Assembly: GCA_040900055.1 (NCBI GenBank)
Contig: JBBDZU010000002.1
Location: 127,725-191,724 of the forward strand
DNA from: Candidatus Saccharimonadales bacterium
Lineage (GTDB): Bacteria > Patescibacteriota > Saccharimonadia > Saccharimonadales > UBA10212
DNA: 64,000 bases
Direction of reading: 5' to 3'
Numbering within the stretch: position 1 is the stretch's first letter; the number at the start of each line of letters is the position of its first letter. This document shows positions 4,403 through 61,138 of the stretch, piece by piece. Below the pieces are notes generated by a model. It was not told the origin of the DNA and searched no databases. It saw only the letters and a program-made list of their open reading frames with translations. The translations under genes and the position numbers were made by a program.

Positions 4403-5074
4403 TTGAACATCCTTATTGTTTACGCGCATCACGAGCCAAGCTCCTTTACGGCGGCTATGAAAAATGCAGCGGTTGAAACTTTAACTCGCCAGGGGCACCT
4501 GGTAACGGTTTCTGATTTATATGGGCAGGGTTTTAGCTCGGTGGCTCAAAAATGGGATTTTGTAACAACTAGCGGCAATCATTTTAACTATATGCTGGAA
4601 CAACGACACGCCGCGCGTTTAAACATGGCTTTCTCGCCGGATATTGTGGCCGAGATTCAAAAGGTCCAAGCCACCGACTTGTTGCTGCTTATAACTCCGA
4701 TTTGGTGGTTTAGCGTACCGGCCATTTTAAAAGGCTGGTTTGACAGGGTGCTAGCCATGGGTGTGGCCTGGGATGGCGGTAAAATTTATGAGAACGGCTT
4801 GCTCCGCGGAAAACAAGCTATGGTTATTGCATCGGCTGGGGGACCGGCCGAATATTACCGTGAGAGTGGCCGCCACAAGGCAAACGTCGCTCAGATACTT
4901 CACCCAATTAATCATGGGACCTTGGCCTTTTGCGGTTTAAATGTCCACGAGCCATTTGTGGGGCTAAATATTTTAGGACGCGACCAAGCTAGTCGTGAGC
5001 AACTGCTTAAAGATCTGCAGTTTCGCCTGGAGCACTTTGTGGATAGCCCCCAGTGGCTTATCCACTTTAGCTAG
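4403..5074 (+). CDS. flavodoxin-like NAD(P)H:quinone oxidoreductase (NQO1/Flavodoxin_2 family)
   Basis: 223 aa. MNILIVYAHHEPSSF N-terminus and PIWWFSVPAILKGWFDRV motif. TTG start. Confidence 0.75.
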   Translation: MNILIVYAHHEPSSFTAAMKNAAVETLTRQGHLVTVSDLYGQGFSSVAQKWDFVTTSGNHFNYMLEQRHAARLNMAFSPDIVAEIQKVQATDLLLLITPIWWFSVPAILKGWFDRVLAMGVAWDGGKIYENGLLRGKQAMVIASAGGPAEYYRESGRHKANVAQILHPINHGTLAFCGLNVHEPFVGLNILGRDQASREQLLKDLQFRLEHFVDSPQWLIHFS

Positions 5075-5120
5075 GCGCCTAGACAAGCCTATTGGCAGGA
5101 GTTGGGCTATAATTGAGGCC

Positions 5121-5798
5121 ATGATATTTCGGAGTGAGGCCGAGCGACGCTACGTGCGGGCAGCGGGGATCTTGAGTGGCCTTTGTTTAGTTTTTTTTGG
5201 GCTACAGCCACTAGCCGCCGACTCGCTGCGTTATTGGTTTATCCCCCAAAATCTAGGATTAGCTTGGCTGAGTTTGCTGTTTGCCTGGCTGTTAGTCGGC
5301 CAGCTTAAAATTCGCAGTTGGCTAAGCTGGCAGAATTTAAGCCTAACATTGCTCTGGCTAATATTTTTGCCTAATGCTTGGTATGTTCTGACTGATTTTA
5401 TCCATATCTTTCCGGCCGATGACGTTATCCATCTTTACGACATTGTGCTAATGAGTACCCTAGTGGTGAGCGGCTTTATTGTCGGCTTTACCAGCCTTTA
5501 TTTGGTGCATTTAGAGCTAATTAAAAGACTGGGGACCCGAGCCGGACATTGGCTGATTGGCCTAGTTATTCTGCTGAGTAGTTTTGGGATATACATGGGC
5601 CGGATCCTGCGCTGGAATACATGGGACGTGGCGGCTAATCCCAGCGGGATTATTCTAAATGTATCTGATAGGTTAGCTAGCCCCTTGGAATATCCGCGCT
5701 TTTTAAGCCTAACCGCCCTATTTTTTGTGTTTATTAGCATGATTTATTTGGCGCTTTGGCTATTTTTAAAACCGCCTAAACCATCGAGGCCAGCTTAA
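5121..5798 (+). CDS. DUF1361-like integral membrane protein
   Basis: Multi-TM protein with NAWYVLTDFIH and RWNTWD motifs. The start is set at an internal ATG to avoid overlap with the upstream gene. Confidence 0.55.
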   Translation: MIFRSEAERRYVRAAGILSGLCLVFFGLQPLAADSLRYWFIPQNLGLAWLSLLFAWLLVGQLKIRSWLSWQNLSLTLLWLIFLPNAWYVLTDFIHIFPADDVIHLYDIVLMSTLVVSGFIVGFTSLYLVHLELIKRLGTRAGHWLIGLVILLSSFGIYMGRILRWNTWDVAANPSGIILNVSDRLASPLEYPRFLSLTALFFVFISMIYLALWLFLKPPKPSRPA

Positions 5799-7466
5799 AT
5801 GGTGCAGGAGCTAAAAAAACTCTTGGCGGCGGAGTGTCAACGTCAATTTGATATTGATATTGAACCGCAGCTAGAAATCCCCGACAGAAAATTTGGCGAT
5901 TACGCTACAAACTTGCCGCTGCAAGTTGCCGCTAAAACCGGCAAAGATCCTAAGGCCATCGCGGAATCGCTGGCTAAGGTCTTAAAAAAATTGCCGCAAA
6001 TATCCGAAGTAAAAGTAGCGGGGCCAGGCTTTATTAACTTTTTTTTGTCTGACAAAGCGATTTTGGACAGCTTGGAACAGGGCCCACTTTTGCACTATAA
6101 GGGCCAAACTGTAGTTGTAGAGTATTCTGATCCGAATCCTTTTAAAGTGCTTCATGTCGGCCATCTATACACTTCCGTAGTGGGTGATGCGATTGCCAAA
6201 ATATTGGAGGCCGCCGGCGCTAAAGTAGCCAGAGTTAATTTTGGCGGTGATGTTGGACTACATGTGGCCAAAACTATGTGGGCTGTACGACAGCGACTAG
6301 GAGGTGAATACCCCGAAAAATTAACCAAAATGGCAGAGAAAACTGGACCCGATTGGTTAGCTGAGGCTTATGCAGAGGGCAACAGGGCTTATGAAGAAGA
6401 CACTAAAGCTAAAGAACAAATTAGGGAGCTAAATGAGCGAATCTATACGTTGCATGACGAAAAAGATGAGGACTCTAATCTAGCTAAAATCTATTGGTTA
6501 ACCCGGAAGTGGAGCTATAAATGTTTTGAGACCTTCTATGGCATGATTGGCACACATTTTGACCGGTTCTACCCAGAAAGTGAGACCGCCGGGCTCGGGC
6601 TTAAAGTAGTCCGCGAAAATATCGGCAAGGTTTTTGAGGAATCTGAAGGCGCCATTATTTTTAAGGGCGAAGTTCATAATATGCATACCCGGGTTTTCAT
6701 AAACAGCCAAAATTTGCCAACTTACGAGACTAAAGATATAGGTTTGGCTCTAAAAAAATGGCAGGACTACCATTACGATCGCTCAATCATCATTACTGGC
6801 AACGATATTTATGAATACATGCAGGTTGTTTTAAAGGCTTTAGAACAAATTGAGCCTGAACTTGCTAAAAAGACCGTTCATATAACGCATGGTCTAGTGA
6901 AGGCAACCGGCGGTATTAAGATGAGCAGCCGTTTAGGCAATATTATCAGGGCAGAAGATGTGCTATCAGCGGCTGATAAAGCTAACACAAAAGCCAACAA
7001 GCAGCAAAATTCTGATGTAGCGTTGGGTGCAGTAAAATATGCCTTCTTAAAGCAGCGAATCGGTGCTGATATAATTTTTAATCCAGACGAGTCTGTAAGC
7101 CTACAAGGAAACAGCGGGCCTTATCTACAGTATGCGTATGTGCGAGCGCACAGTATTTTAAAGAAATCAAACAATACTACCAAACCACACCCACTAGCCG
7201 CTAGCCTTGAGAATGAGGAGCGCAGCCTGGCCCGTAAAATTAGCGAATATCAGGAGGTTGTGACCAAAGCCACCGATGAGTTAATGCCGCACCACATTTG
7301 CACCTATCTTTATGAGCTGGCCCAGACGTTTAACCGCTTTTACGAGACTAATCGGATTATTGATGATCCCCGCCAGCCCATCCGTTTAAAGCTGGTAGGA
7401 GCCTACAGTAAAGTTCTAAAAAACGGCTTGGAGCTATTAAATATTCCGGTGCTAGAAAGGATGTAA
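5799..7466 (+). CDS. argS: arginine--tRNA ligase
   Basis: 555 aa. HVGH (HIGH) motif, MSSR (KMSK-like) motif and the typical C-terminal ...LERM. Confidence 0.95.
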
Positions 7467-7467
7467 C

Positions 7468-7902
7468 ATGGCTAAAGTTCAGCTGTCTGACGAGGAACTG
7501 AAAAAGAAACTTACGCCTGAACAATACCGCATTCTTCGGCAAAAAGGCACGGAAGCGCCTTTCTCCGGTAAGTACCTAGACCACAAAGAAAAGGGCATGT
7601 ATACCTGCGCAGCCTGTGGCGTCCGACTTTTTAGCAGTGACACCAAATTTGACTCCGGTACCGGCTGGCCAAGCTTTTATGACGTTACGTCAAGTGACGC
7701 CGTTAAATTAGCAGAAGATAGCAGCCATGGTATGAACCGCGTAGAAGTTACCTGCGCCAACTGCGGCAGTCACTTAGGGCATGTTTTTAACGATGGACTT
7801 ACGACCCTGCCTGCCGGCAGGCAGGCTACCGGCCAGAGATTTTGCATTAACTCGGCTTGCCTCGGTTTTATGCCAGAAGGCAGCTCTAAGGCCAAAGGCT
7901 AG
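7468..7902 (+). CDS. msrB: peptide-methionine (R)-S-oxide reductase MsrB, with in-frame palindrome insertion
   Basis: 144 aa. Two CxxC pairs and GHVFNDG...RFCINS. An extra [10 protein letters not shown] sits where homologs have about 3 residues. Confidence 0.93.
7806..7825. repeat. GC palindrome family copy 2 (CCTGCCTGCCGGCAGGCAGG)
   Basis: Perfect 20-bp palindrome inside msrB. Confidence 0.95.
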
Positions 7903-12752: not shown

Positions 12753-13883
12753 ATGGCCAAAAAAGCGACTACAACCAAATCCCCCAGAAGAACTACTCGG
12801 TCGTTTGAAAAAGAAATTGCCTCCCTCGTTGAGCAGGGTAAAAAAGATGGCAAAATCGACCAAAAAGACATCTTTGCTGCTATCCCAGATACTCCGGCCA
12901 ACATCGATGTACTAGACCAGCTTTATGCCGAACTGGCCGAAGGCGAAGTCGAGATAATTGCAGCGGCGGAGCCGCCACCGGAGGGCCTAAGCGATGAGTG
13001 GGCTGTCGATGGCGAAGAGCTAATCACCGACGACAACGCCTATATGGACGATATTGCCGATGATTCGGTGCGACTTTACTTGCGCGAAATAGGTAAGATT
13101 CCACTTTTAACTGCCGAGGAAGAACTAGCCCTAGCCCGGAAAGTAAAATCCGGCGACAAACGCGCCAAAGATGCTATGGCCGAGGCCAATATGCGCCTAG
13201 TTGTTTCAATTGCCAAACGCTACGTGGGCCGCGGGCTAGATTTGCTGGACCTTATCCAAGAAGGTAACACCGGCCTGCTTCGTGCGGTCGAGAAATTTGA
13301 CCCGGACCGAGGTTTTAAATTTAGTACCTACGCCACTTGGTGGATTAGGCAGGCTATAACTCGGGCAATTGCCGACCAAGCCCGGACAATTCGTATTCCG
13401 GTTCACATGGTGGAAACAATCAATAAGCTGCTTAGGACCCAGCGGCGCCTAACTCAAGAACTCAACCGTGAGCCAACTAACGACGAAATTGCTGTAGCCA
13501 TGGAAATGGACGTTGATAAAGTAGAGCACATCATGAAAATTAAGCAGGACATTAGCTCACTTGATGCTAGCGTTCGCGACGACGAAGAAGATTCAGTCTT
13601 GGGTGATTTTATTGAGGATGAAGACGCTAAAACACCAACCGAATCGGCCTCCGAGCAGCTTCTTAAAGAACAAGTTAAACAAATTCTAGGTACTTTAACC
13701 GAGCGGGAACAAAAAATCTTAAAACTGCGCTTTGGCCTAGAAGACGGCAAAAGTCACACCCTAGAAGAAGTTGGTCAGGAATTTAGTGTTACCCGCGAAC
13801 GGATTCGCCAAATTGAAGCCAAAGCTTTAGCTAAATTACGTAAGCACAAAGAAACCCGCCGTCTGCACGAGTACCTGCAGTAA
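12753..13883 (+). CDS. rpoD: RNA polymerase sigma factor RpoD (primary sigma-70)
   Basis: 376 aa. Regions 1.2 to 4 are present ([30 protein letters not shown]). Confidence 0.95.
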
Positions 13884-13930: not shown

Positions 13931-15322
13931 ATGACAGAGTTGATTCTGCCAGGAAAACTAGACTCAGAATATGAGGGGGCCGAAAGGCCCTTTTTAGATT
14001 CAGAAGAGCTAGCATCCAATGAAGAACTAAGGCAGCTACTTGAAGCCGGCAAAAGCCCGGAGACTGTAGCAGTAGTCCTCAAAGAGCTAGGGATTGATGA
14101 TGACAAAATTGCCGAGGTTTATAGCTATCTGGAAGAGGAACAGCAGCCCACTGAAGTTAGAGCTGAAACCGAAGTAAAATATGACCCTCAAACTACAGAC
14201 TCGCTGAAAATTTATTTAAATGAAATAAAAAAACATCCTCTTCTGACCGCGTCCCAAGAAGTTGAGCTCGCCAAACGCATCGAGCGGGGCGACCCCGAAG
14301 CAAAACAAAAGATGATTGAATCTAACCTGCGATTGGTAGTTTCAATTGCTAATAAATACCCAGGGCATATGTCTTTACTTGATCGCATACAAGAGGGCAA
14401 CAAAGGGCTTATACGGGCAGTCGAGAAGTTTGATCACCGTAGAGGCTTTAAATTTAGTACTTATGCGACCTGGTGGATCCGTCAGGCTGTACAAAGAGGA
14501 ATAGCCGATAAAGCAAGGACTATTCGGTTCCCAGTACACATAACAGAACGCCAACAAAAGATAATTAATTCAAGGAGGCGTTTAACCGGGGAGCTTGGCC
14601 GAGAGCCTTCGGTTGAAGAAATAGCCGAAGATATAGGTATGTCGCTAAGAATGGTGACGGCAGTCCTAGAGGCGCCTGAGGCGTCGGTTTCACTGCAAAA
14701 GCCTGTGGGCGAAGAAGGTGAGGCCCAATTTGGTGATTTATTACCCGGGGACGGAGAGGAAGAAATCTTGGAGGCCGTGGAGCAGAAATTACTAGAGCAA
14801 ATAATCGCAGATCACCTAGGTAGTCTGCCGGAAAAATGGCGTGAAGTGATAGAACTCAGGTATGGTCTAAAGGATGGGGAAGAAAGAACTTTAGAAGATA
14901 TCGGGCGGGGGATGGGTTTAACAAAGGAACGAGTCCGGCAAATCGAAACTGAAGCGTTAAAACACTTGGCTAGCTCTGAGCTTAGGGAAAAGATCGAGCC
15001 AAAGGAGGCGGTAGAATTGAAAAAAAGGTTGACTAGTAAAAAAACTGCTATTTTATATCTTAGAGACGGAACAACAATCCAAATGCCCGAACTCTATTAC
15101 GAAATTCTAAGGCGATTATCTACAGGGATGTCTCACTTAAAGGCTGCGCAGGATCTTGGTATGCCACATAGTACTGTTAAAGCACTTGGCCCTAATGGCG
15201 GCAAGGGGTACTACGCTAAGCTTGGTGTTCAGAACGTGGCTGAAGCTAGACAAAAATTTCAACAAGAATTTGTACGGGTCGAATTTAAAGAGGTGGAAGA
15301 AACCGACCAAAAAGAAGCATGA
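13931..15322 (+). CDS. second group-1/2-like sigma-70 factor fused to a C-terminal LuxR/GerE-type HTH
   Basis: 463 aa. Complete regions 1.2-4 ([30 protein letters not shown]). A further ~110 aa contains [27 protein letters not shown]...[12 protein letters not shown]. Confidence 0.85.
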
Positions 15323-15929: not shown

Positions 15930-16040
15930 ATGGCGGAGCGAAAAAAGCTAGCAATTATTGACCCCAGCACCACAAACTTGAAGCTACATAATCTGATTGC
16001 AGACTACTCCGCTCAGGTTTTGGTGCGGGGCAAGTGGTAA
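15930..16040 (+). pseudogene. duplicated polA 5' fragment / 36-codon upstream ORF
   Basis: Encodes MAERKKLAIID, identical to PolA residues 1-11, but 9 of the 11 codons carry synonymous differences. The two sequences diverge completely after codon 11. Confidence 0.5.
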
Positions 16041-46006: not shown

Positions 46007-47794
46007 ATGAACGTCTTAACAGCTTCTACCGCCCAACACGTTGAAGAGATGCTGCTGGCTGACGGCGTCGTATCTAAAGCTGAGCTGGGCCAGCTAAAGC
46101 GACAGGCCGACACCAACGGTAAACCGCTTTTATCGACGCTTTTAGAAAAGGGCGCTATCACAGACGAGCAACTGACTAAAACCTTAGCTAAGGCTAGTAA
46201 GATTCCCTACGTTAACCTTAGTAATGTTCGTATTGACCCTAAAATCCTGCAGTTACTGCCACAAGATTTGGCCGAGCACTACATGGCCGTACCGCTTGGC
46301 GAGATGGCCGATCGTTTAGTGGTTGCTATGCTCGATGCCGGCAATGTTCAGGCCGTCGATTTTTTAAGCAACCGGATCGGCCGGCCCTTAAAAGTCTATG
46401 CCGCCAGCGAAAAAGGTATCAGACGAGTTCTACCGCAATACAGCCGGGGTGATTTAGTGCCTGGCATGGCCTCATTTTTAGACGAACAACTAAAAACTGC
46501 CGATGCCGAAGCCGGCCAAACCGTCCAAGCGGAAGAAAAAGTCCAAACCATCACCCCCGATTCGCCAATATCCAAAGCGCTGGCCGCTATCATGGACTAC
46601 GCTGCTAAAAACCTAGCCAGTGATATTCACATCGAGCCGCTAGAAAATCAAATTAAAATCCGCTGTCGGGTAGATGGGGTGCTACGCGAAGTCATGAAGC
46701 TGCCAAAAAGCTTAGAGGCCCCTTTAATTAGTCGAGTAAAAATTTTAGCCAACCTAAAAATAGATGAACACCGCATTCCTCAGGACGGCCAGTTTTCCAT
46801 TAAAGTCGACGGTCGGCCAATTGACCTTCGTATAGCCATTAGCCCAACGGTTTGGGGAGAACAAGTCACGCTCAGGCTGCTAGATAAAACGGCCACCAGC
46901 TTAAAACTAGAAGACTTAGGCTATACCGGTCGGACGCTTAGGCTTTTGGAAAAAGGCTTAACTAGGCCTTATGGCATGATACTAACTTCGGGGCCGACTG
47001 GCTCTGGAAAATCGACCTCTATGTACGCCATGATTCAAAAAATAAAGACTGATTCTATAAACATCGTTACGTTAGAAGATCCAGTGGAATATAAAATTGA
47101 AGGAGTTAATCAAATACAGGTTAACCCCGATATTGGCCTAACCTTTGCCACCGGCTTGCGGTCAGTCTTGCGCCAAGACCCCGATGTGGTAATGGTCGGC
47201 GAAATCCGGGATAAAGAAACCGCCAATTTAGCTGTCCAGGTAGCCCTAACCGGACATTTGGTTTTCTCAACTCTTCACACCAATAACGCCGCAGGCATTT
47301 TGCCAAGGCTACTTGACATGGGCATTGAGCCGTTTTTAATAGCCTCGACAGTTCATACGGTAATTGGCCAGCGCCTGGTAAGAAAAGTAGTGCCTGGCGG
47401 CGAGACTTATCAGTCCACTAAAGCCGAAACCTTAGCTATTTCGCAGGCGTTGGGAAACATCTTGCCGAAAACCTCCCAAGAGGTGGCAAAAGTTGCCGCG
47501 GACCTGGGCTATCAGAGCTTGCCTCTGGCAGGACAAAGCGCTTATACTCTAGTTAAAGGTGCCGTCTCGAACGATAATCCAACGGGTTATCAAGGACGCC
47601 TGGGGTTGTTCGAAGTCTTTGAGGTTACTGAGCAAATCCAAGACCAAATTCTACGTCATGCTACTAGCTCGATGATCCAAAAGGCGGCTCAAGCTCAAGG
47701 AATGCTAACTATGCGACAAGACGGCTACCTAAAGGCCTTGGCCGGCCTAACCACTCTTTTAGAAGTTGATAGAGTGGCGGCCGAGGAGGGCTAA
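46007..47794 (+). CDS. pilB: T4P extension ATPase PilB (GspE family)
   Basis: 595 aa. Walker A GPTGSGKST, Asp box and His box. Confidence 0.93.
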   Translation: MNVLTASTAQHVEEMLLADGVVSKAELGQLKRQADTNGKPLLSTLLEKGAITDEQLTKTLAKASKIPYVNLSNVRIDPKILQLLPQDLAEHYMAVPLGEMADRLVVAMLDAGNVQAVDFLSNRIGRPLKVYAASEKGIRRVLPQYSRGDLVPGMASFLDEQLKTADAEAGQTVQAEEKVQTITPDSPISKALAAIMDYAAKNLASDIHIEPLENQIKIRCRVDGVLREVMKLPKSLEAPLISRVKILANLKIDEHRIPQDGQFSIKVDGRPIDLRIAISPTVWGEQVTLRLLDKTATSLKLEDLGYTGRTLRLLEKGLTRPYGMILTSGPTGSGKSTSMYAMIQKIKTDSINIVTLEDPVEYKIEGVNQIQVNPDIGLTFATGLRSVLRQDPDVVMVGEIRDKETANLAVQVALTGHLVFSTLHTNNAAGILPRLLDMGIEPFLIASTVHTVIGQRLVRKVVPGGETYQSTKAETLAISQALGNILPKTSQEVAKVAADLGYQSLPLAGQSAYTLVKGAVSNDNPTGYQGRLGLFEVFEVTEQIQDQILRHATSSMIQKAAQAQGMLTMRQDGYLKALAGLTTLLEVDRVAAEEG

Positions 47795-48894: not shown

Positions 48895-50007
48895 ATGCCA
48901 AGCTTTAGCCATAGCGCTGTTGAAGCCAAAACCGAACTCTTCGGCGGTTTGGCAACCTTTCGTAATCGGATTGGGTCTAAACAAAAAGTTATTTTATCGC
49001 GTCAGCTGGCTACTTTAATTAATGCCGGTCTGCCGCTGATCCAAAGCTTAAATACAGTTAAGGGCCAAACATCTAACCCGGCCCTTAAAGAAATTATTGG
49101 TGTGATTATAAGCGATGTGGAGGGCGGGGCAACTTTATCAAAGGCCCTAGCCAAGCATCCCAAAGTTTTTAACGATGTTTATATTAGCTTAATTGCTGCC
49201 GGTGAAGCCTCGGGCAATCTAGACAAAAGCCTAGAGCGGCTGGCTAACCAGCAAGAAAAAGATGCCGAAATAGTCTCAAAAGTCCGGGGAGCCTTAATCT
49301 ATCCATTGATTGTCCTAGCTGTCTTAGGTGCAGTTTTGGTATTTATGTTGATTGCTGTTTTGCCGCAGGTCCAAAGCCTTTATGAGCAACTGCCCGGAGC
49401 AGAGTTACCTTTAATTACTAGGGCGCTACTGGCTTTAGCGAATCTAATCATAAATATTTGGTGGATTGTGCTGATAGTTTTAATCATCGGCAGTATTTTA
49501 GGCGTGCGCTGGGCCCGGAGTCCGGCCGGTCAAGAAGTAATAGATAGGCTCAAACTTAAGCTTTGGCCCATAGCACCGCTGTTTGCCAAACTTTATATGG
49601 CCCGGTTTTCCCGAACGGCTGCCACCTTAGTGGCTAGTGGGGTGCCCATGATAAAAATGCTAGAAACTACCGCCCAGGCGGTTGATAATCTGCAGGTTTC
49701 CAGGTCGATCCTACAAGCCTCCGAAAAGGTTAAAGGCGGTAAAAGCCTATCAGAAAGCTTAAGCGGCGATCCTAACTTCTTAGAACTGGTGCCTAATATG
49801 ATTAATATCGGTGAACAATCGGGTGCTTTGGACAATATGCTGGCCAAAACGGCCGAGTATTACGAGAAAGAGGTAGATAACCAAATTAAAGCTGTCTCAA
49901 CAGTAATTGAGCCGGTTATGATGATTATTGTCGGCGTTTTGGCTTTAATAATGGTAGCGGCCGTACTACTGCCCATATATAACCTGGCTGGCCAGCGCTT
50001 TATTTAG
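48895..50007 (+). CDS. pilC: T4P platform protein PilC (GspF family)
   Basis: 370 aa with two GspF repeats. Confidence 0.9.
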   Translation: MPSFSHSAVEAKTELFGGLATFRNRIGSKQKVILSRQLATLINAGLPLIQSLNTVKGQTSNPALKEIIGVIISDVEGGATLSKALAKHPKVFNDVYISLIAAGEASGNLDKSLERLANQQEKDAEIVSKVRGALIYPLIVLAVLGAVLVFMLIAVLPQVQSLYEQLPGAELPLITRALLALANLIINIWWIVLIVLIIGSILGVRWARSPAGQEVIDRLKLKLWPIAPLFAKLYMARFSRTAATLVASGVPMIKMLETTAQAVDNLQVSRSILQASEKVKGGKSLSESLSGDPNFLELVPNMINIGEQSGALDNMLAKTAEYYEKEVDNQIKAVSTVIEPVMMIIVGVLALIMVAAVLLPIYNLAGQRFI

Positions 50008-50086: not shown

Positions 50087-50587
50087 ATGAAATACCGGCT
50101 TAACAAACAAAAAGAACCAAGAGTCCCCAAAAACTTGGGCGGTTTTACAATTATCGAGGTTGTTATTGTGCTGGCTATCGCTGGTCTAATTATGGCCATA
50201 GTTTTTATAGCCGTACCTCAACTTAACCGCAACGCTCGAGATAATGCCCGGCAAAACGTTGCCAATCGTTTGCACTCAGAACTTGGGACCTACGCTGCCA
50301 ATAATAGCGGAACCTATCCATTTACCACTTCGGCGCTAGCTGATTTCTCTAGCCGCTATGCCTCGACCATTAAGATGACTAATCCATCAACTGGCAGTAC
50401 GTACTCGCTAGACTTCGCTAGCAGTGATGGAGCAAATCCCAGTGCCGATCAAATCCTTATTCATCGCGGCGCTAGGTGTACCGGCGAACAAGCCTCTGGC
50501 ACCAGCTCCTCAGCCACTACCAGATCTTATGCGCTGCGGGTAGCGCTGGATAGATCAAACATTTTCTACTGCATCGACAACGGATAG
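50087..50587 (+). CDS. pilA: type IV major pilin
   Basis: 166 aa. Leader ...KNLGG|FTIIEVVIVLAIAGL with G at -1, F at +1 and E at +5. Confidence 0.85.
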   Translation: MKYRLNKQKEPRVPKNLGGFTIIEVVIVLAIAGLIMAIVFIAVPQLNRNARDNARQNVANRLHSELGTYAANNSGTYPFTTSALADFSSRYASTIKMTNPSTGSTYSLDFASSDGANPSADQILIHRGARCTGEQASGTSSSATTRSYALRVALDRSNIFYCIDNG

Positions 50588-50661
50588 ACCTACTTTGGAC
50601 AGCCAAAGTAGCAAAACCGCCGGGCGCGTCGCCAAGCTTGAGTAGCGGTTGTTTAAAACAG

Positions 50662-50681
50662 CCTGCCTGCCGGCAGGCAGG
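50662..50681. repeat. GC palindrome family copy 3
   Basis: Perfect CCTGCCTGCCGGCAGGCAGG. Confidence 0.95.
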
Positions 50682-50906
50682 GCTCGCTGTGGATCTCACC
50701 CTCACCATTTTCACTGGAAATGGTGAGGGGCTCAAACAGTCCTCGCGACCAAGTACGCCTCTTTAATAAACAACAGACTACTCAGGTTAACTCCTTATGC
50801 CCGGACCCATAAATTGGGCATGTAGGCGAGCCTGAGCTAAGCACGTCAAAAGCATCAACTTAATAATGCCGAGGACTGTCCGATCCGCCAGCTGGCGGAG
50901 AGGGCC

Positions 50907-50928
50907 GCCTGCCTGCCGGCAGGCAGGC
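50907..50928. repeat. GC palindrome family copy 4 (22 bp)
   Basis: GCCTGCCTGCCGGCAGGCAGGC. A CCGCCAGCTGGCGG palindrome lies adjacent at 50885-50898. Confidence 0.95.
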
Positions 50929-51066
50929 TTGTCGTCCCGCAGGCTTGTTTGTGCGCTTTGACAGGGGTTGGCGTCAGCCGAGCCTACGCCCAGAGCTTTT
51001 TTTGCTACTTTTGTCGGCACAAAAGTAGCGAATACTTTGCTTCTTTAGAAAGAAGCAGTTAGCATT

Positions 51067-51876
51067 ATGGTAATGCTTGTTACGGCTATTGCCTTAGCTA
51101 TTTTAGGCTTATGCTTGGGGAGCTTTGTAAACGCCCTGGTTTGGCGCATACATGTCAATAAAAATTGGGTGAAGGCTAGAAGCCAGTGCCCAACCTGCGG
51201 CCATATTCTATCGGCACGCGATCTAATTCCGGTTATATCTTGGTTATCATTACGCGGTCGTTGCCGTTACTGCGGCAATAAAATCTCTTGGCAGTATCCT
51301 ATTTCCGAACTTGGCCTATCAGCTGTTTTTATGACTTCTTATTATTTTTGGCCTGGCGGGTTAACTAGCACCGGTCCTAAAATTTTATTCATTAGCTGGC
51401 TTATTTCGGCTGTAGGTCTTTTGGCCTTATTTATTTATGACCTTCGTTGGATGTTGCTGCCCAGTAAAATCCTGGCTGCTACAGCTTTGGTGGCCATAAC
51501 CGGACGGCTGATTTACTTAATCGGCTTTGAACCGTCAAAAACTGAAGGCCTTGCCAATTGGCTACTTAGCATCACAGTAGCCAGTGGTCTATTTGGGTTA
51601 TTTTATATAATTTCACGCGGTCGCTGGATAGGCGACGGGGACATTAGCCTTGGTCTAATTACCGGCACCTTGCTGGCCGATCCATTGCGAAGTTTTTTAA
51701 TGATTTTTTTGGCGTCGCTAATTGGCACTTTAGTGGTGTTGCCGGCCATTATCAGCGGTCGGCGGGCGCTTGGTACTAGGGTGGCCTATGGCCCGTTTTT
51801 GATTTTAGCGGCATTTATTGTCCTTTTGTTTGGCGATCCATTTATCGATTGGTATAAGGCGCTGATTTTAGTTTAG
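51067..51876 (+). CDS. pilD: prepilin peptidase / N-methyltransferase
   Basis: 269 aa. CPTCGH...CRYCG zinc motif. Multi-TM protein with GDGD-type aspartate motifs. Confidence 0.9.
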   Translation: MVMLVTAIALAILGLCLGSFVNALVWRIHVNKNWVKARSQCPTCGHILSARDLIPVISWLSLRGRCRYCGNKISWQYPISELGLSAVFMTSYYFWPGGLTSTGPKILFISWLISAVGLLALFIYDLRWMLLPSKILAATALVAITGRLIYLIGFEPSKTEGLANWLLSITVASGLFGLFYIISRGRWIGDGDISLGLITGTLLADPLRSFLMIFLASLIGTLVVLPAIISGRRALGTRVAYGPFLILAAFIVLLFGDPFIDWYKALILV

Positions 51877-51922
51877 CTAAGGTGATTTACCCCTTAGCGC
51901 TTATGTTATACTAACCTATATA

Positions 51923-52813
51923 ATGAGGGGCTTTAAAAAGGCTTTGGACTGGGCCCGCCCAGCTCTAAATCCTGAAGTGACAAGAGAGGGAATACCTCTA
52001 TTTGAAGCATCAAGATTTAGGGCAGGGTATACCTTTATTGAGGCCCTAATCGTGCTGGCCATTTCTACATCTTTTTTCCTGGGCGCCATGGTCTTAGTAA
52101 ACGGCCAGCAATCTAAAACGGGCTTCTCCGGAGCCATGCGTGACCTGGAATCTAGGGTTAGAAACTACGTATCACAAGTTACCAGCGGGACTTTTCCAGA
52201 CAGCGCAGGCTATAGCTGCGAGGTTAACGCCACCGGTCATCCGGTTTTAAGCCCGGCAGCCGGAGGCATTGGCGAAAGTTCAGAATGTCTATTTTTAGGC
52301 AGAGCTATCCAAGCGGTGCCTAGTCACGATCATTTGTATATTTATCCGGTTATCGGCACTAAAAACGCTTATAACGGTGCCAACAACTTAGGTACGGCCG
52401 CCACGGGTTTTAATCAAATCAACACTAGCCCTGCCGTAAGCTCTGGCGGCCAGTTTCTGTTAGTAGACGAATATAAGCTCCTAGATGGCGCCAGCGTCCT
52501 CAAAACTTCTGTTGCGGGCTCTAGCGGCGATTTTAGCCTGGCGGGTTTTTATACGGCTTTATCAAGTGACGGTGGTTCGGCCAGTAATAGCTTACTAGCC
52601 AAGGCCTACCCACTAATTAGCACGACCGACACCATTAAATCGGCAGCCTTAAAAAGCTGCTTAGAAAAAAACCCACCGTGTGCCGAACTTTCCGATTTTA
52701 GCCGTTGGGACTTATGTGTCCAAAGCGGCGACGGTAATCAAACTGCTATTTTAAGCATTAACAACACCGCCGCGGGAATTACCACCAAATTAAGTTTCGA
52801 GGTCTGCTCATGA
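51923..52813 (+). CDS. minor (pseudo)pilin with hairpin element in the leader
   Basis: 296 aa. ...RFRAG|YTFIEALIVLAIS. The N-terminal MRGF followed by a 32-aa insert suggests an interrupted short leader. Confidence 0.75.
   Translation: MRGFKKALDWARPALNPEVTREGIPLFEASRFRAGYTFIEALIVLAISTSFFLGAMVLVNGQQSKTGFSGAMRDLESRVRNYVSQVTSGTFPDSAGYSCEVNATGHPVLSPAAGGIGESSECLFLGRAIQAVPSHDHLYIYPVIGTKNAYNGANNLGTAATGFNQINTSPAVSSGGQFLLVDEYKLLDGASVLKTSVAGSSGDFSLAGFYTALSSDGGSASNSLLAKAYPLISTTDTIKSAALKSCLEKNPPCAELSDFSRWDLCVQSGDGNQTAILSINNTAAGITTKLSFEVCS
51955..52027. repeat. prepilin-leader hairpin element, copy 1
   Basis: Outer arms CCCAGCTCTAAATCCTGA / TCAAGATTTAGGGCAGGG. Inner hairpin AGAGG-GAATA-CCTCT. About 85% identical to copy 2 by eye. 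Confidence 0.75.
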
Positions 52814-53358
52814 ATTTAATTACTAAAGACTCAACTTTTAGCTTGATTCACTTAATAAAGCGGGGGTCTCGCCCAGCCTTAAATCCTGAAGGCAGAAGAG
52901 AGGGAATACCTCTATTTCGATTATCAAGATTTAGGGCTGGGGACACCATCGTGGAAGTTCTAGTCAGCGTCACTGTTTTAGCACTAGTGCTAGCCGGCGC
53001 TTATGTTTCTTCTTCTAACAGCTTGCGTCAGGGTACTGCCGCTGGCAACCGTAATCAAGCTTTGGGCCACGCCCAAGCTCAAATTGGTCTTATAAAAAGC
53101 GCTGCCGGCACTAATGCGGCTACCTTGAACTCTTACAAAATTAACCAACCATTTTGCATAGCTTCAGACGGCACGGTCGATACCAGCAGTATCAACCAAG
53201 CAGAAGGTGTTTGCTATCTTAGCTCCTGGACGCCGTATGGAGTGGGCGTAAAATACAGCTCGTCTAATCAGGTATTTACGGTCACCGCCAAATGGCCAGG
53301 CGGAGGGGCCACCGCCCAGGACCAACTGGTGCTTTATTATAAAGCGGGGAGCAATTAG
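52810..53358 (+). CDS. minor (pseudo)pilin with hairpin element in the leader
   Basis: 182 aa. ...RFRAG|DTIVEVLVSVTVLALVLAG. ATGA overlap with the upstream gene. Confidence 0.7.
   Translation: MNLITKDSTFSLIHLIKRGSRPALNPEGRREGIPLFRLSRFRAGDTIVEVLVSVTVLALVLAGAYVSSSNSLRQGTAAGNRNQALGHAQAQIGLIKSAAGTNAATLNSYKINQPFCIASDGTVDTSSINQAEGVCYLSSWTPYGVGVKYSSSNQVFTVTAKWPGGGATAQDQLVLYYKAGSN
52869..52942. repeat. prepilin-leader hairpin element, copy 2
   Basis: CGCCCAGCCTTAAATCCTGAAG...AGAGGGAATACCTCT...ATCAAGATTTAGGGCTGGGG. Confidence 0.75.
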
Positions 53359-53360
53359 CT

Positions 53361-54026
53361 ATGACGCGGGCATATTCGCCTAAGGGCTTTACCATAACCG
53401 AGCTGCTAATCGCCACCGCAGTCTTCTCACTCATCTTAACAGGGGCCATAGCCGGTTTTTTGCAAATTGGTAGGATGTTTTATAAAGGGGTTTCTGTCAC
53501 CCAAACTCAGGAAAATGCCCAGACTTTGCTAAATAGTCTGCGTGACGGAATTGCCCAGTCTGCTAATGTCTCGTCAGCCCAGTCTGGCGGGGGCTATACG
53601 TACTACTGCATTGGCAACGTTCGCTATACTTATAACATCAACAAAATGGTGGACCAATCGGCCGATTCTAATTACTCGTCCGGCGGCAATTTTGGGCTTT
53701 TGCGTGATGTGATGCCAGGCTCTACGGCCTGCGCGACACCTTGTGTTAGCGCTTGCCCGGCGGGCGGCGTAGCCTTAAATAAACCACAGGAGCTGCTTGG
53801 CCACAAAAACCGTTTGGGTAATTTTAGTATTGTCCAGCCAGACCCAGCTGCTGCCCCTAACTTATATAAGTTGGACCTAACGGTTGTTTATGGCGACGAC
53901 GAGGTTTTGGACTTTCGTGAAGAGGGCAACCCGGCCACACTTTTTTGTACCGGTAATCTATCTACCCAGCAGTTTTGCGCCGTAAGCTCGCTGTCGACCA
54001 GCGTTTATCGAGGTTTAAGCCTATGA
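53361..54026 (+). CDS. minor pilin
   Basis: 221 aa. Leader MTRAYSPKG|FTITELLIATAVF. Confidence 0.8.
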   Translation: MTRAYSPKGFTITELLIATAVFSLILTGAIAGFLQIGRMFYKGVSVTQTQENAQTLLNSLRDGIAQSANVSSAQSGGGYTYYCIGNVRYTYNINKMVDQSADSNYSSGGNFGLLRDVMPGSTACATPCVSACPAGGVALNKPQELLGHKNRLGNFSIVQPDPAAAPNLYKLDLTVVYGDDEVLDFREEGNPATLFCTGNLSTQQFCAVSSLSTSVYRGLSL

Positions 54027-60226: not shown

Positions 60227-61138
60227 TTACGGTTTTCGGTGAAACTTCTCGTGAACGGCCTTTAGGTGCGGGTCGGTAACATGAGTATAAATTTGGGTAG
60301 TAGCAATGTTGCTATGGCCTAACATAGCTTGCACACTGCGCAAATCCGCGCCATTCATTAATAGATCGGTAGCAAAGGAGTGCCGCAATGTATGGGGACT
60401 AACGTGTTTAGTAATTCCAGCAAGTTTGGCATAGCGGGCGACCATCCTCTGGACACTGCGGGCAGTTAACCGGGCAAAATTACCAGATTGATCGACTTTT
60501 TTCGAGCCGCTATAGCGGATAAATAGAGGTTTGGAGTTATCTTGACGCTTGGCCAGATATGCTGAAATCCATTCAGCCGCCTCGGGACTAATAAAAATCG
60601 GTCGATCTTTTTGGCCTTTGCCGCGGACCATAAACTCCCGCCGCCCTAAGTTGATATGGTCGCTATCTAGGCCAACTAGCTCGCTAACCCGTAGGCCGCT
60701 GGAAAACAGCAGCTCAATGATAGATCGATCACGCAAACCAGCCAGGGTAGAGGTATCGGGCTGGGAAGCTAGCCGCTCTAACTCATCTGGTGTTAAAAAG
60801 GTAACTTGAGGCCGCTGAATACGGGCTAACTCTATCTTATCGGGTGCCAAAGCCGCCATTTCTCGCTTGGCGCAAAAGCGCAAAAAACTACGAAGGGCAA
60901 TAAGATGGTAGTTCTGGGTGGTTTTAGATAGTTCGTCAGAGGTATTAGTGCCCAAACGGTTAAGCCAAAGCCGCCATTTACGGATAAGCTCTACATCTAT
61001 ATCGGCTAACTTTATATCGCCGGCAAAGTCGGACAGCCTGGTTAAATAATGGCTGTAGTTGGCAATAGTTTTAGAGGAGCGGTTTTGCTCTAGCTCCAAG
61101 TACTCTAAAAACTGCTCAACAGCCTGCTCATAAGGCAT
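60227..61138 (-). CDS. tyrosine recombinase XerC/XerD family
   Basis: 303 aa. The R..HxxR..Y catalytic set is present (RHSFATDLL, GHSNIATTQIYTHV). Confidence 0.88.
   Translation of the reverse strand: MPYEQAVEQFLEYLELEQNRSSKTIANYSHYLTRLSDFAGDIKLADIDVELIRKWRLWLNRLGTNTSDELSKTTQNYHLIALRSFLRFCAKREMAALAPDKIELARIQRPQVTFLTPDELERLASQPDTSTLAGLRDRSIIELLFSSGLRVSELVGLDSDHINLGRREFMVRGKGQKDRPIFISPEAAEWISAYLAKRQDNSKPLFIRYSGSKKVDQSGNFARLTARSVQRMVARYAKLAGITKHVSPHTLRHSFATDLLMNGADLRSVQAMLGHSNIATTQIYTHVTDPHLKAVHEKFHRKP

Follow-up and report, generated by a model that had tools for sequence, protein, structure and literature searches.

Hairpin Segments at the Cleavage Junctions of Two Saccharimonadales Minor Pilins Are Probably Copies of a Dispersed Palindromic Repeat

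How do two adjacent minor pilin genes with no recognizable similarity in the rest of their sequence come to carry nearly the same hairpin, each time exactly where the prepilin leader is expected to be cut? The question is raised by a stretch of 64,000 nucleotides (hereafter the window; contig JBBDZU010000002.1, assembly GCA_040900055.1) from a metagenome-assembled genome (MAG) of Candidatus Saccharimonadales, which holds a type IV pilus cluster with two such genes, here called gene 1 and gene 2. An earlier note on this DNA had described the shared segment and offered three readings: a mobile hairpin that targets or regenerates the prepilin junction, a regulatory structure at the RNA level, or a novel long leader peptide. 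We find that the segments are probably copies of a small, nonautonomous, dispersed palindromic repeat of Saccharibacteria that resembles the Rickettsia palindromic elements (RPEs). The hairpin is probably no pilin-specific device, because most of its other copies are intergenic and lie in unrelated contexts.

A shared hairpin at two prepilin junctions

Gene 1 (51923 to 52813, forward strand; 296 amino acids) and gene 2 (52810 to 53358, forward strand; 182 amino acids), with the NCBI locus tags WD877_01075 and WD877_01080 on a contig of 192,830 bp, lie directly downstream of the prepilin peptidase gene pilD (51067 to 51876, forward strand; Peptidase_A24 and A24_N_bact domains), whose product is the enzyme expected to remove both leaders. 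Each protein has the glycine at position -1, the hydrophobic N-terminal helix and the glutamate at +5 of a prepilin, at RAG/YTFIE in gene 1 and RAG/DTIVE in gene 2 (the slash marks the cleavage site), and the orthologue alignments agree with both junctions. PF07963 (N_methyl) matches residues 33 to 55 and 46 to 65 with 17.4 and 19.7 bits, respectively, under the curated cutoff of 21.2 bits. The mature gene 1 product is predicted to begin with YTFIEAL. With the segment included, the leaders measure 35 residues in gene 1 and 44 in gene 2, exceeding both the short basic leader of a prepilin (about 5 to 30 residues) and the leaders of the orthologues (7 to 17).

The 75-nt segment in gene 1 (copy 1; 51953 to 52027, forward strand) occupies codons 11 to 35 (A11 to G35) and scores 87 bits against the covariance model of the family described below (R1); that in gene 2 (copy 2; 52867 to 52941, forward strand) occupies codons 20 to 44 (S20 to G44) and scores 89 bits. 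Both are of the sequence type that we call A. Copy 1 ends in GCA GGG (Ala-Gly), followed by TAT ACC TTT ATT GAG (Y T F I E), whereas copy 2 comes after AAG CGG GGG (K R G), ends in GCT GGG, and leads into GAC ACC ATC GTG GAA (D T I V E). In codon register the two agree at 63 of 75 positions (84 to 86% identity), and a repeat search of the window groups them as one family (D2). A search of the 64-kb window with three sub-patterns of the element recovers these two copies and nothing else, where about 0.01 chance matches would be expected. The earlier note's translation, RPALNPE..REGIPLF..SRFRAG, is correct; in the pilins this peptide is hydrophilic and basic and resembles an ordinary leader.

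Each copy folds into a two-tiered hairpin with outer arms CCCAGCYYTAAATCCTGA and TCAAGATTTAGGGCWGGG and an inner AGAGG-GAATA-CCTCT, as the note had proposed. Copy 1 folds at -35.8 kcal/mol (z = -4.9) and copy 2 at -38.8 kcal/mol (z = -5.3), and none of 200 shuffled sequences is as stable. Beyond the element the likeness ends: the sequences flanking it in gene 1 and gene 2 resemble each other only as much as shuffled ones do (p about 0.33), and BLASTP gives no significant similarity between the two mature proteins, in keeping with the claim that the surrounding sequence cannot be aligned. The segment thus lies at both prepilin junctions, with its bounds in codon register at 51953 to 52027 and 52867 to 52941.

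Gain of the segment in frame

Both genes start upstream of the element. The ATG of gene 2 overlaps the stop codon of gene 1 (ATGA), and the same arrangement is seen in syntenic loci of relatives (L001 and L003). Upstream of gene 1, a promoter-like block with an extended -10 (TTACCCCTTAGCGCTTATGTTATACT; 51887 to 51912, forward strand) is conserved in both orthologous loci (L001, 5156 to 5181; L003, 4427 to 4452), with the consensus TTACvCCTTAGCGCTTATGyTATACT (extended -10, TGyTATACT). It ends 10 nt upstream of the gene 1 ATG in the window and 7 nt upstream of it in L001 and L003, which suggests that the mRNA of the minor pilin operon is leaderless or nearly so; transcription is predicted to start 0 to 3 nt ahead of the ATG at 51923. 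Given the conserved ATGA overlap of gene 2 and the promoter block with the ATG of gene 1, both starts lie upstream of the element, which is therefore coding and not confined to a 5' untranslated region.

Orthologues of both genes have short leaders without the element. All nine homologues of gene 2 (three at 61 to 65% identity and six more distant) are without the 25 residues, and their leaders are short, for example MMRYLSALWQGRGRG/DTIVEV and ..GRGRG/DTIVEV. The orthologues of gene 1 have leaders of 7 to 8 residues (MGRPHRG/YTIVEV, MMRVLGGG/YTIAEA, and MKMAAKGG/YTIVEV), and the covariance model finds no match in the syntenic loci L001 and L002. Since each pilin gene has its own orthologues without the segment, the gene duplication predates its gain and the segment was acquired twice. 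The orthologues (G/YTIVEV) also place a native tyrosine at +1 of gene 1. The earlier suggestion that removal of residues 5 to 36 would restore a leader MRG/FTFIEAL agrees neither with this tyrosine nor with the boundaries of the element.

The positions of the two insertions are alike. In gene 2 the insert directly follows KRG and directly precedes DTIVEV. The gene 1 insert comes after ..GAC TGG; TGG is one base away from GGG, and the former glycine codon of gene 1 may have decayed to TGG once it was no longer needed. The G-rich 3' end of the element always encodes glycine in the open sense frame, so that ..GCN GGG adds Ala-Gly and supplies Gly(-1).

In the sense direction a single frame of the element lacks stops, as the arm CTAAATCCTGA gives TAA and TGA in the other two; a surviving sense insertion must therefore use the frame seen in the pilins. 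About half of the intergenic members of the family have a stop in that same frame, often as ..TTT TAG TGC... Both pilin copies are open over exactly 25 codons, with one T missing (..AGA TTT AGG GCN GGG). Their common derived states (CCCAGC, the lost T and the 75-nt length) indicate that one copy probably derives from the other.

In L003 the orthologue of gene 1 has been lengthened in frame by about 160 nt of strongly folding sequence unrelated to the element (4459 to 4641), which yields a leader of 61 residues (MKCVRAF...RKVSAG/YTIVEV) and represents another kind of insertion in this leader. We rejected this extension as a member of the same repeat family, as it has no covariance-model match and no further copy in the loci. 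The leader of the gene 1 pilin seems to be generally permissive to insertion.

A repeat family across Saccharibacteria

Outside the pilin genes the element belongs to a dispersed family with about 20 separate loci in Saccharibacteria. When 185,579 species genomes were scanned with its central 20-mer, 7 loci were returned, all from Saccharibacteria or Patescibacteria MAGs. A metagenome scan with a 19-mer returned 27 loci, about 22 of them with the full hairpin and 5 of them chance matches (L012, L022, L028, L029, and L035). A giant-virus locus that matched the arm pattern (L004) was also set aside as a chance match, and collections of phages and plasmids held no match to the element. The covariance model R1 was built from 20 distinct copies. 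A search of Rfam 15 with the element, the window, and 20 loci gave no family at the gathering threshold, and permissive E-values gave matches at chance level only. Signal recognition particle RNA, an attC site, and a bypass element were considered as identities for the element and discarded because its sequence features and its copy number do not suit them.

We count about 18 further distinct copies, of which 17 lie outside any long open reading frame (ORF). Their neighbors are functionally unrelated and include tRNA-Gln, tRNA-Leu, PNPase, GyrA, a class I aminoacyl-tRNA synthetase, an ABC ATPase, a sortase, a HEPN protein, a T2SSE ATPase with L19, and 5S rRNA. Most copies are co-oriented with the neighboring genes, and in L007 and L037/L038, from different species, a copy stands downstream of 5S rRNA at a distance of about 82 nt. 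Antisense to the local genes are the copies in L008 and L011, one within murB (L034), and a divergent one at 15957 in the window. In three loci (L016, L024, and L031) we observe a near-identical version of about 105 nt whose flanks cannot be aligned, which is the signature of a dispersed repeat.

The divergent window copy (15957 to 16036, reverse strand; 39.5 bits with the model filters off) is intergenic, with a P-loop kinase-like ORF on one side and polA on the other, and represents a second type, B. It has the basal stem of the family (CTTGCCCCGCACCAAAACCTGA...TCAAGTTTGTGGTGCTGGGG) and a different apical hairpin (GTAGTCTGCAATCAGATTA), and this apical module recurs in L014 (1175 to 1253). 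The arms GCCCCGCACTAAATCCTGA and TCAAGATTTTAGTGCGGGGC, common to both types, form terminal inverted repeats. The family thus has conserved ends with at least two alternative centers, a pattern like that of transposable elements of the miniature inverted-repeat type (MITEs). Among the papers listed by our literature search, none connected MITEs with Saccharibacteria. A decayed copy without a stable fold (28 bits) was recovered in the orthologous pilus cluster of L003 (3525 to 3605), between the major pilin gene and pilD.

The locus L014 shows a further feature. Its type A copy (1470 to 1596) lies just downstream of tRNA-Gln and is flanked by tRNA-like pieces, namely, an acceptor-like GCTGGGG and CTCCCAGCCA and a T arm GGGGGTTCGAATCCCTC. 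An element placed there as a tRNA intron was rejected, since ARAGORN finds no tRNA, either with its intron option or in 360 deletion variants. The flanks may be what is left of a tRNA, or a site resembling att.

An in-frame copy in murB

One further copy lies within a coding sequence. In L034, the element at 5543 to 5617 is antisense to murB (4719 to 5855) and in frame with it, and the ORF reads ..YPDIKGWPQHQNLDASNRGIPSLQASGLGAGQAHELKMVKISAGWL.. across the insert. Residues 279 to 306 of this MurB span only 3 residues of Pseudomonas aeruginosa MurB (PDB 7orz), which corresponds to an insert of about 25 residues (75 nt), in a loop before the conserved K-x-S/A-AGWL motif. Here the element has inserted in frame into the gene of a housekeeping enzyme, independently of the pilin copies.

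Selection on the hairpin

Across the family the hairpin is under selection, and on one strand. In an alignment fitted to the model, which somewhat favors the structure, 93.5% of the cells are paired, and 14 of the 28 pairs have changed on both sides. None of 500 shuffles reaches any of five covariation measures, and slid partners pair in 45 to 50% of cells. Members fold at -30 to -45 kcal/mol (z about -5). Outside one invariant G-U pair, 19 G-U cells stand against 5 A-C cells, and in 19 of 20 copies the strand that is sense in the pilins forms the more stable fold of the two. Such strand-biased pairing fits a hairpin in RNA or in a single DNA strand better than it fits double-stranded sites for a transposase. 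Two loops are conserved, an internal one with tandem G-A/A-G and one reading GAAUA; the latter persists in L007's second copy, where its closing stem has changed with compensation.

The same constraint is visible in the pilin genes. In the stems, copies 1 and 2 differ by synonymous changes that preserve pairing (GCT CTA versus GCC TTA; GCA versus GCT), whereas the differences in unpaired loops are nonsynonymous, and the constraint is therefore on the hairpin rather than on the peptide. The nearly invariant 3' arm of the family, ATCAAGATTTTA (e.g., L014, 1551 to 1563), resembles the IHF core consensus, WATCAANNNNTTR. The pilin copies lack the T that completes a 3' arm of this type.

Origin of the pilin copies

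Taken as a dispersed palindromic repeat, the segment would have landed, or been copied, twice in sense orientation between the Gly(-1) and +1 codons of adjacent pilin genes. Survival of the genes would be favored by the 75-nt length, by the lost T, which removes an in-frame TAG, and by the GCN GGG end, which rebuilds G/YTFIE and G/DTIVE. PilD would still cut the longer leaders, leaving the mature pilins unchanged. The insert would be tolerated because the leader is cleaved off and the GGG at the 3' end of the element supplies Gly(-1); it would need no pilin-specific function. The repeat itself may have spread via a single-stranded hairpin intermediate mobilized by some enzyme. Of the claim that a mobile hairpin targets or regenerates the junction, the mobile, dispersed nature of the element fits best, and at the sequence level the insert does regenerate Gly(-1). 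Targeting is not borne out, as there are only two related events and the flanks of the other copies have no target motif in common.

Several observations weigh against a dispersed repeat as the whole explanation. No transposase, REP-associated tyrosine transposase (RAYT; REP, repetitive extragenic palindrome), or other mobilizing enzyme adjoins any copy examined; Pfam scans of the minus-strand ORFs of the window, the ORFs flanking the type B copy, and the neighbors of ten elements yielded only a XerC/D-type recombinase (60227 to 61138) and housekeeping genes. The element is flanked on both sides by GGG(G) in gene 2 and L014 and only by GG in gene 1, and elsewhere there is no consistent target-site duplication. 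Copy number looks low, at 1 to 3 in each DNA stretch seen. The shared distance from 5S rRNA in two species, the co-orientation with genes, and the strand-biased pairing would also suit a functional RNA hairpin. Cleavage of leaders of 35 and 44 residues by PilD is presumed from the junction sequences. Finally, any position in a leader of 10 to 17 codons should be tolerated, so that insertion at the same junction in two genes exceeds what random insertion and selection would give; some site preference or functional selection was probably involved in the junction position.

A site preference of this kind is the substance of the alternative that we find doubtful but the least improbable, namely, that the element homes to prepilin-junction DNA (a GGG or GGN glycine codon followed by NAY ACC) or to G-runs, its insertions being targeted. 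Both insertions fall exactly at the -1/+1 junction despite their dissimilar flanks, and G-runs abut the 5' side of the element in gene 2 (CGGGGG/TCTC, the slash here marking the insertion boundary) and in L014 (ATCGGGGG/CCTG), with the TGG of gene 1 a possible former GGG. As the element ends in GGGG, direct repeats of GGG(G) arise at such junctions, and a local source may be the decayed copy that L003 has between its major pilin gene and pilD. There are, however, only two events, and copies 1 and 2 are more closely related to each other than to any other copy. The cluster's remaining two prepilin genes (G/FTIIE and G/FTITE) are empty, a single G is all that the flanks of the approximately 18 other copies and of the murB copy have in common, and the Gly(-1) codon is GGC and GGT, not GGG, in L001 and L003.

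Unlikely, in our estimate, is a functional cis-acting RNA hairpin (protein-binding, processing, stabilizing, or terminating) whose copies, within the first 110 nt of the pilin coding regions, regulate expression. The strong covariation of the stems, the invariant G-U pair, the tandem G-A/A-G loop, the conserved GAAUA loop, and the greater stability of the sense strand would all fit such an RNA, as would the co-orientation of most copies with flanking genes and the two copies equidistant from 5S rRNA. Against it stand the antisense copies (murB, L008, L011, and type B of the window), the functionally unrelated neighbors, the lack of an Rfam family, and the orthologous pilin genes, which work without the element. 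Selection on the hairpin is, moreover, equally expected if the element is mobilized as single-stranded DNA. A bolder statement that joins these two alternatives strikes us as improbable too: the hairpin would either home to the prepilin Gly(-1) codon and bring its own glycine, with the cleaved leader as a safe harbor, or be a conserved protein-binding RNA module in the leader codons that coregulates the minor pilins.

A leader peptide with a function of its own, in which the 25 residues chaperone, target, or delay cleavage, is very unlikely. The frame is open in both genes, and the peptide has the hydrophilic, basic character of ordinary leaders. Conservation, however, follows the stems rather than the codons, with nonsynonymous differences wherever the RNA is unpaired; homologous copies are noncoding, half of them with stops in the frame, and the murB copy is read on the opposite strand. 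In a peptide search of 1.84 billion cluster representatives, the two window proteins were the only strong matches (E <= 1e-10), and two others fell under E 0.001 (1e-4 and 4e-4) with weak, multi-stretch matches, so that no other protein clearly has the peptide. A padded peptide profile run against a 5.8-billion protein set found only a small intergenic ORF of L009 and missed the window proteins themselves, which makes its outcome uninformative.

Tandem duplication or gene conversion between the pilin genes, with the segment copied and no mobile element involved, is largely refuted and has little probability left. The derived states of copies 1 and 2 do imply a common source or descent of one from the other, but the similarity is confined to the element, the separate orthologues put the gene duplication before the gain, and the element occurs in many other genomes and contexts. 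Least probable of all is that the hairpin is skipped at the RNA level and never translated, by excision or by a bypass of the T4 gene 60 type, which has matched take-off and landing codons and a stop after the take-off codon: the GGG directly before the insert in gene 2 equals its last codon, but gene 1 pairs TGG with GGG, no stop follows the would-be take-off codon, and both copies keep the frame open with a length divisible by three. They have, moreover, lost the usual TAG, a loss that matters only if they are translated.

Comparison with known systems

The dispersed repeat described here comes closest to the RPEs, which insert in frame in protein-coding genes (Ogata et al. 2000, as reviewed in PMC10969869). 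The likeness, drawn from their description, is that of short, transposase-less palindromic repeats in a reduced genome, located both in intergenic regions and in frame in unrelated genes, where a peptide is added and the protein is kept. Here too we observe many unrelated loci, a palindromic hairpin, and frame-keeping coding copies that are absent from orthologues. The element differs in its length (about 75 nt versus about 100 to 150 bp), in its phylum (Saccharibacteria, of the candidate phyla radiation [CPR]), and in the low copy number seen. The pilin copies also lie in a cleaved leader, in contrast to the surface loop that receives an RPE; the murB copy resembles the latter situation.

Bacterial MITEs and intragenic repeats of the ERIC, BOX, and Correia type likewise have conserved inverted-repeat arms around a variable center, as in types A and B, form hairpins when transcribed, and occasionally create in-frame ORF fusions (PMC10969869). 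Unlike MITEs, the copies described here have no clear target-site duplication, and no parent insertion sequence with matching ends was found near them. Their arms, moreover, show covariation from genome to genome that is biased toward G-U, and this speaks for a single-stranded structure and not for double-stranded transposase sites.

A comparison can also be made with REPs and bacterial interspersed mosaic elements (linked to RAYT, an IS200/IS605-like HUH enzyme). They too are single hairpins specific to one strand, are found mostly outside genes and often where transcription units end, and probably act as single-stranded DNA or RNA. A REP, however, measures 20 to 40 nt, has a GTAG or GGAG head, and is present hundreds of times, with a RAYT gene nearby. 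The element of the pilin genes is about 75 nt long, has no GTAG head at its 5' end, and is present in 3 copies in the 64 kb, with no RAYT seen.

Type IVb prepilins and class III signal peptides share with the two pilins the Gly(-1) after which a PilD-type peptidase would cut and the Glu(+5), and leaders of 15 to 30 residues are tolerated in known systems. The lengths of 35 and 44 residues found here differ in origin, as they result from a recent DNA insertion without a counterpart in orthologues and are not a trait of the family.

The pilus cluster and other repeats of the window

Upstream of pilD, the type IV pilus cluster comprises genes for two T2SSE ATPases (at 46007 and 47766), a PilC-like T2SSF protein (at 48895), and a major-type pilin with the junction ..NLGG/FTIIEVV (at 50087). 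A further pilin with the junction ..SPKG/FTITELL lies at 53361, after gene 2. The spacer of 480 nt between the major pilin gene and pilD is rich in hairpins and holds two copies (50661 to 50683 and 50908 to 50930) of a perfect 22-nt palindrome, GCCTGCCTGCCGGCAGGCAGGC, which is present three times in the window, the remaining copy being at 7801 to 7826. This palindrome looks like a second, REP-like family of short repeats.

Two direct repeats lie elsewhere in the window. One, of 168 nt and 70% identity (13241 to 13408 and 14374 to 14541), falls within an ORF at 12753 to 13883 and a sigma-70 gene at 13931 to 15322, and these adjacent ORFs are probably paralogous sigma factors. The other, A-rich, 31 nt long, and 94% identical (2576 to 2606 and 2710 to 2740), straddles the predicted start, at 2615, of a phosphoglucose isomerase-like ORF.

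Implications

As far as our searches could tell, this would be the first described family of dispersed palindromic repeats in Saccharibacteria and the CPR, and, after Rickettsia, the second clear case of such repeats standing in frame inside the genes of reduced genomes. The two pilin copies amount to a natural experiment, which suggests that a prepilin leader may take up 25 arbitrary residues if Gly(-1) is restored, and this bears on the substrate rules of PilD and on the engineering of type IV pilins. The family also offers a ready marker of strain variation in Saccharimonadales. It is, furthermore, a candidate structured RNA or single-stranded DNA motif, and its conserved loops suggest a binding partner.

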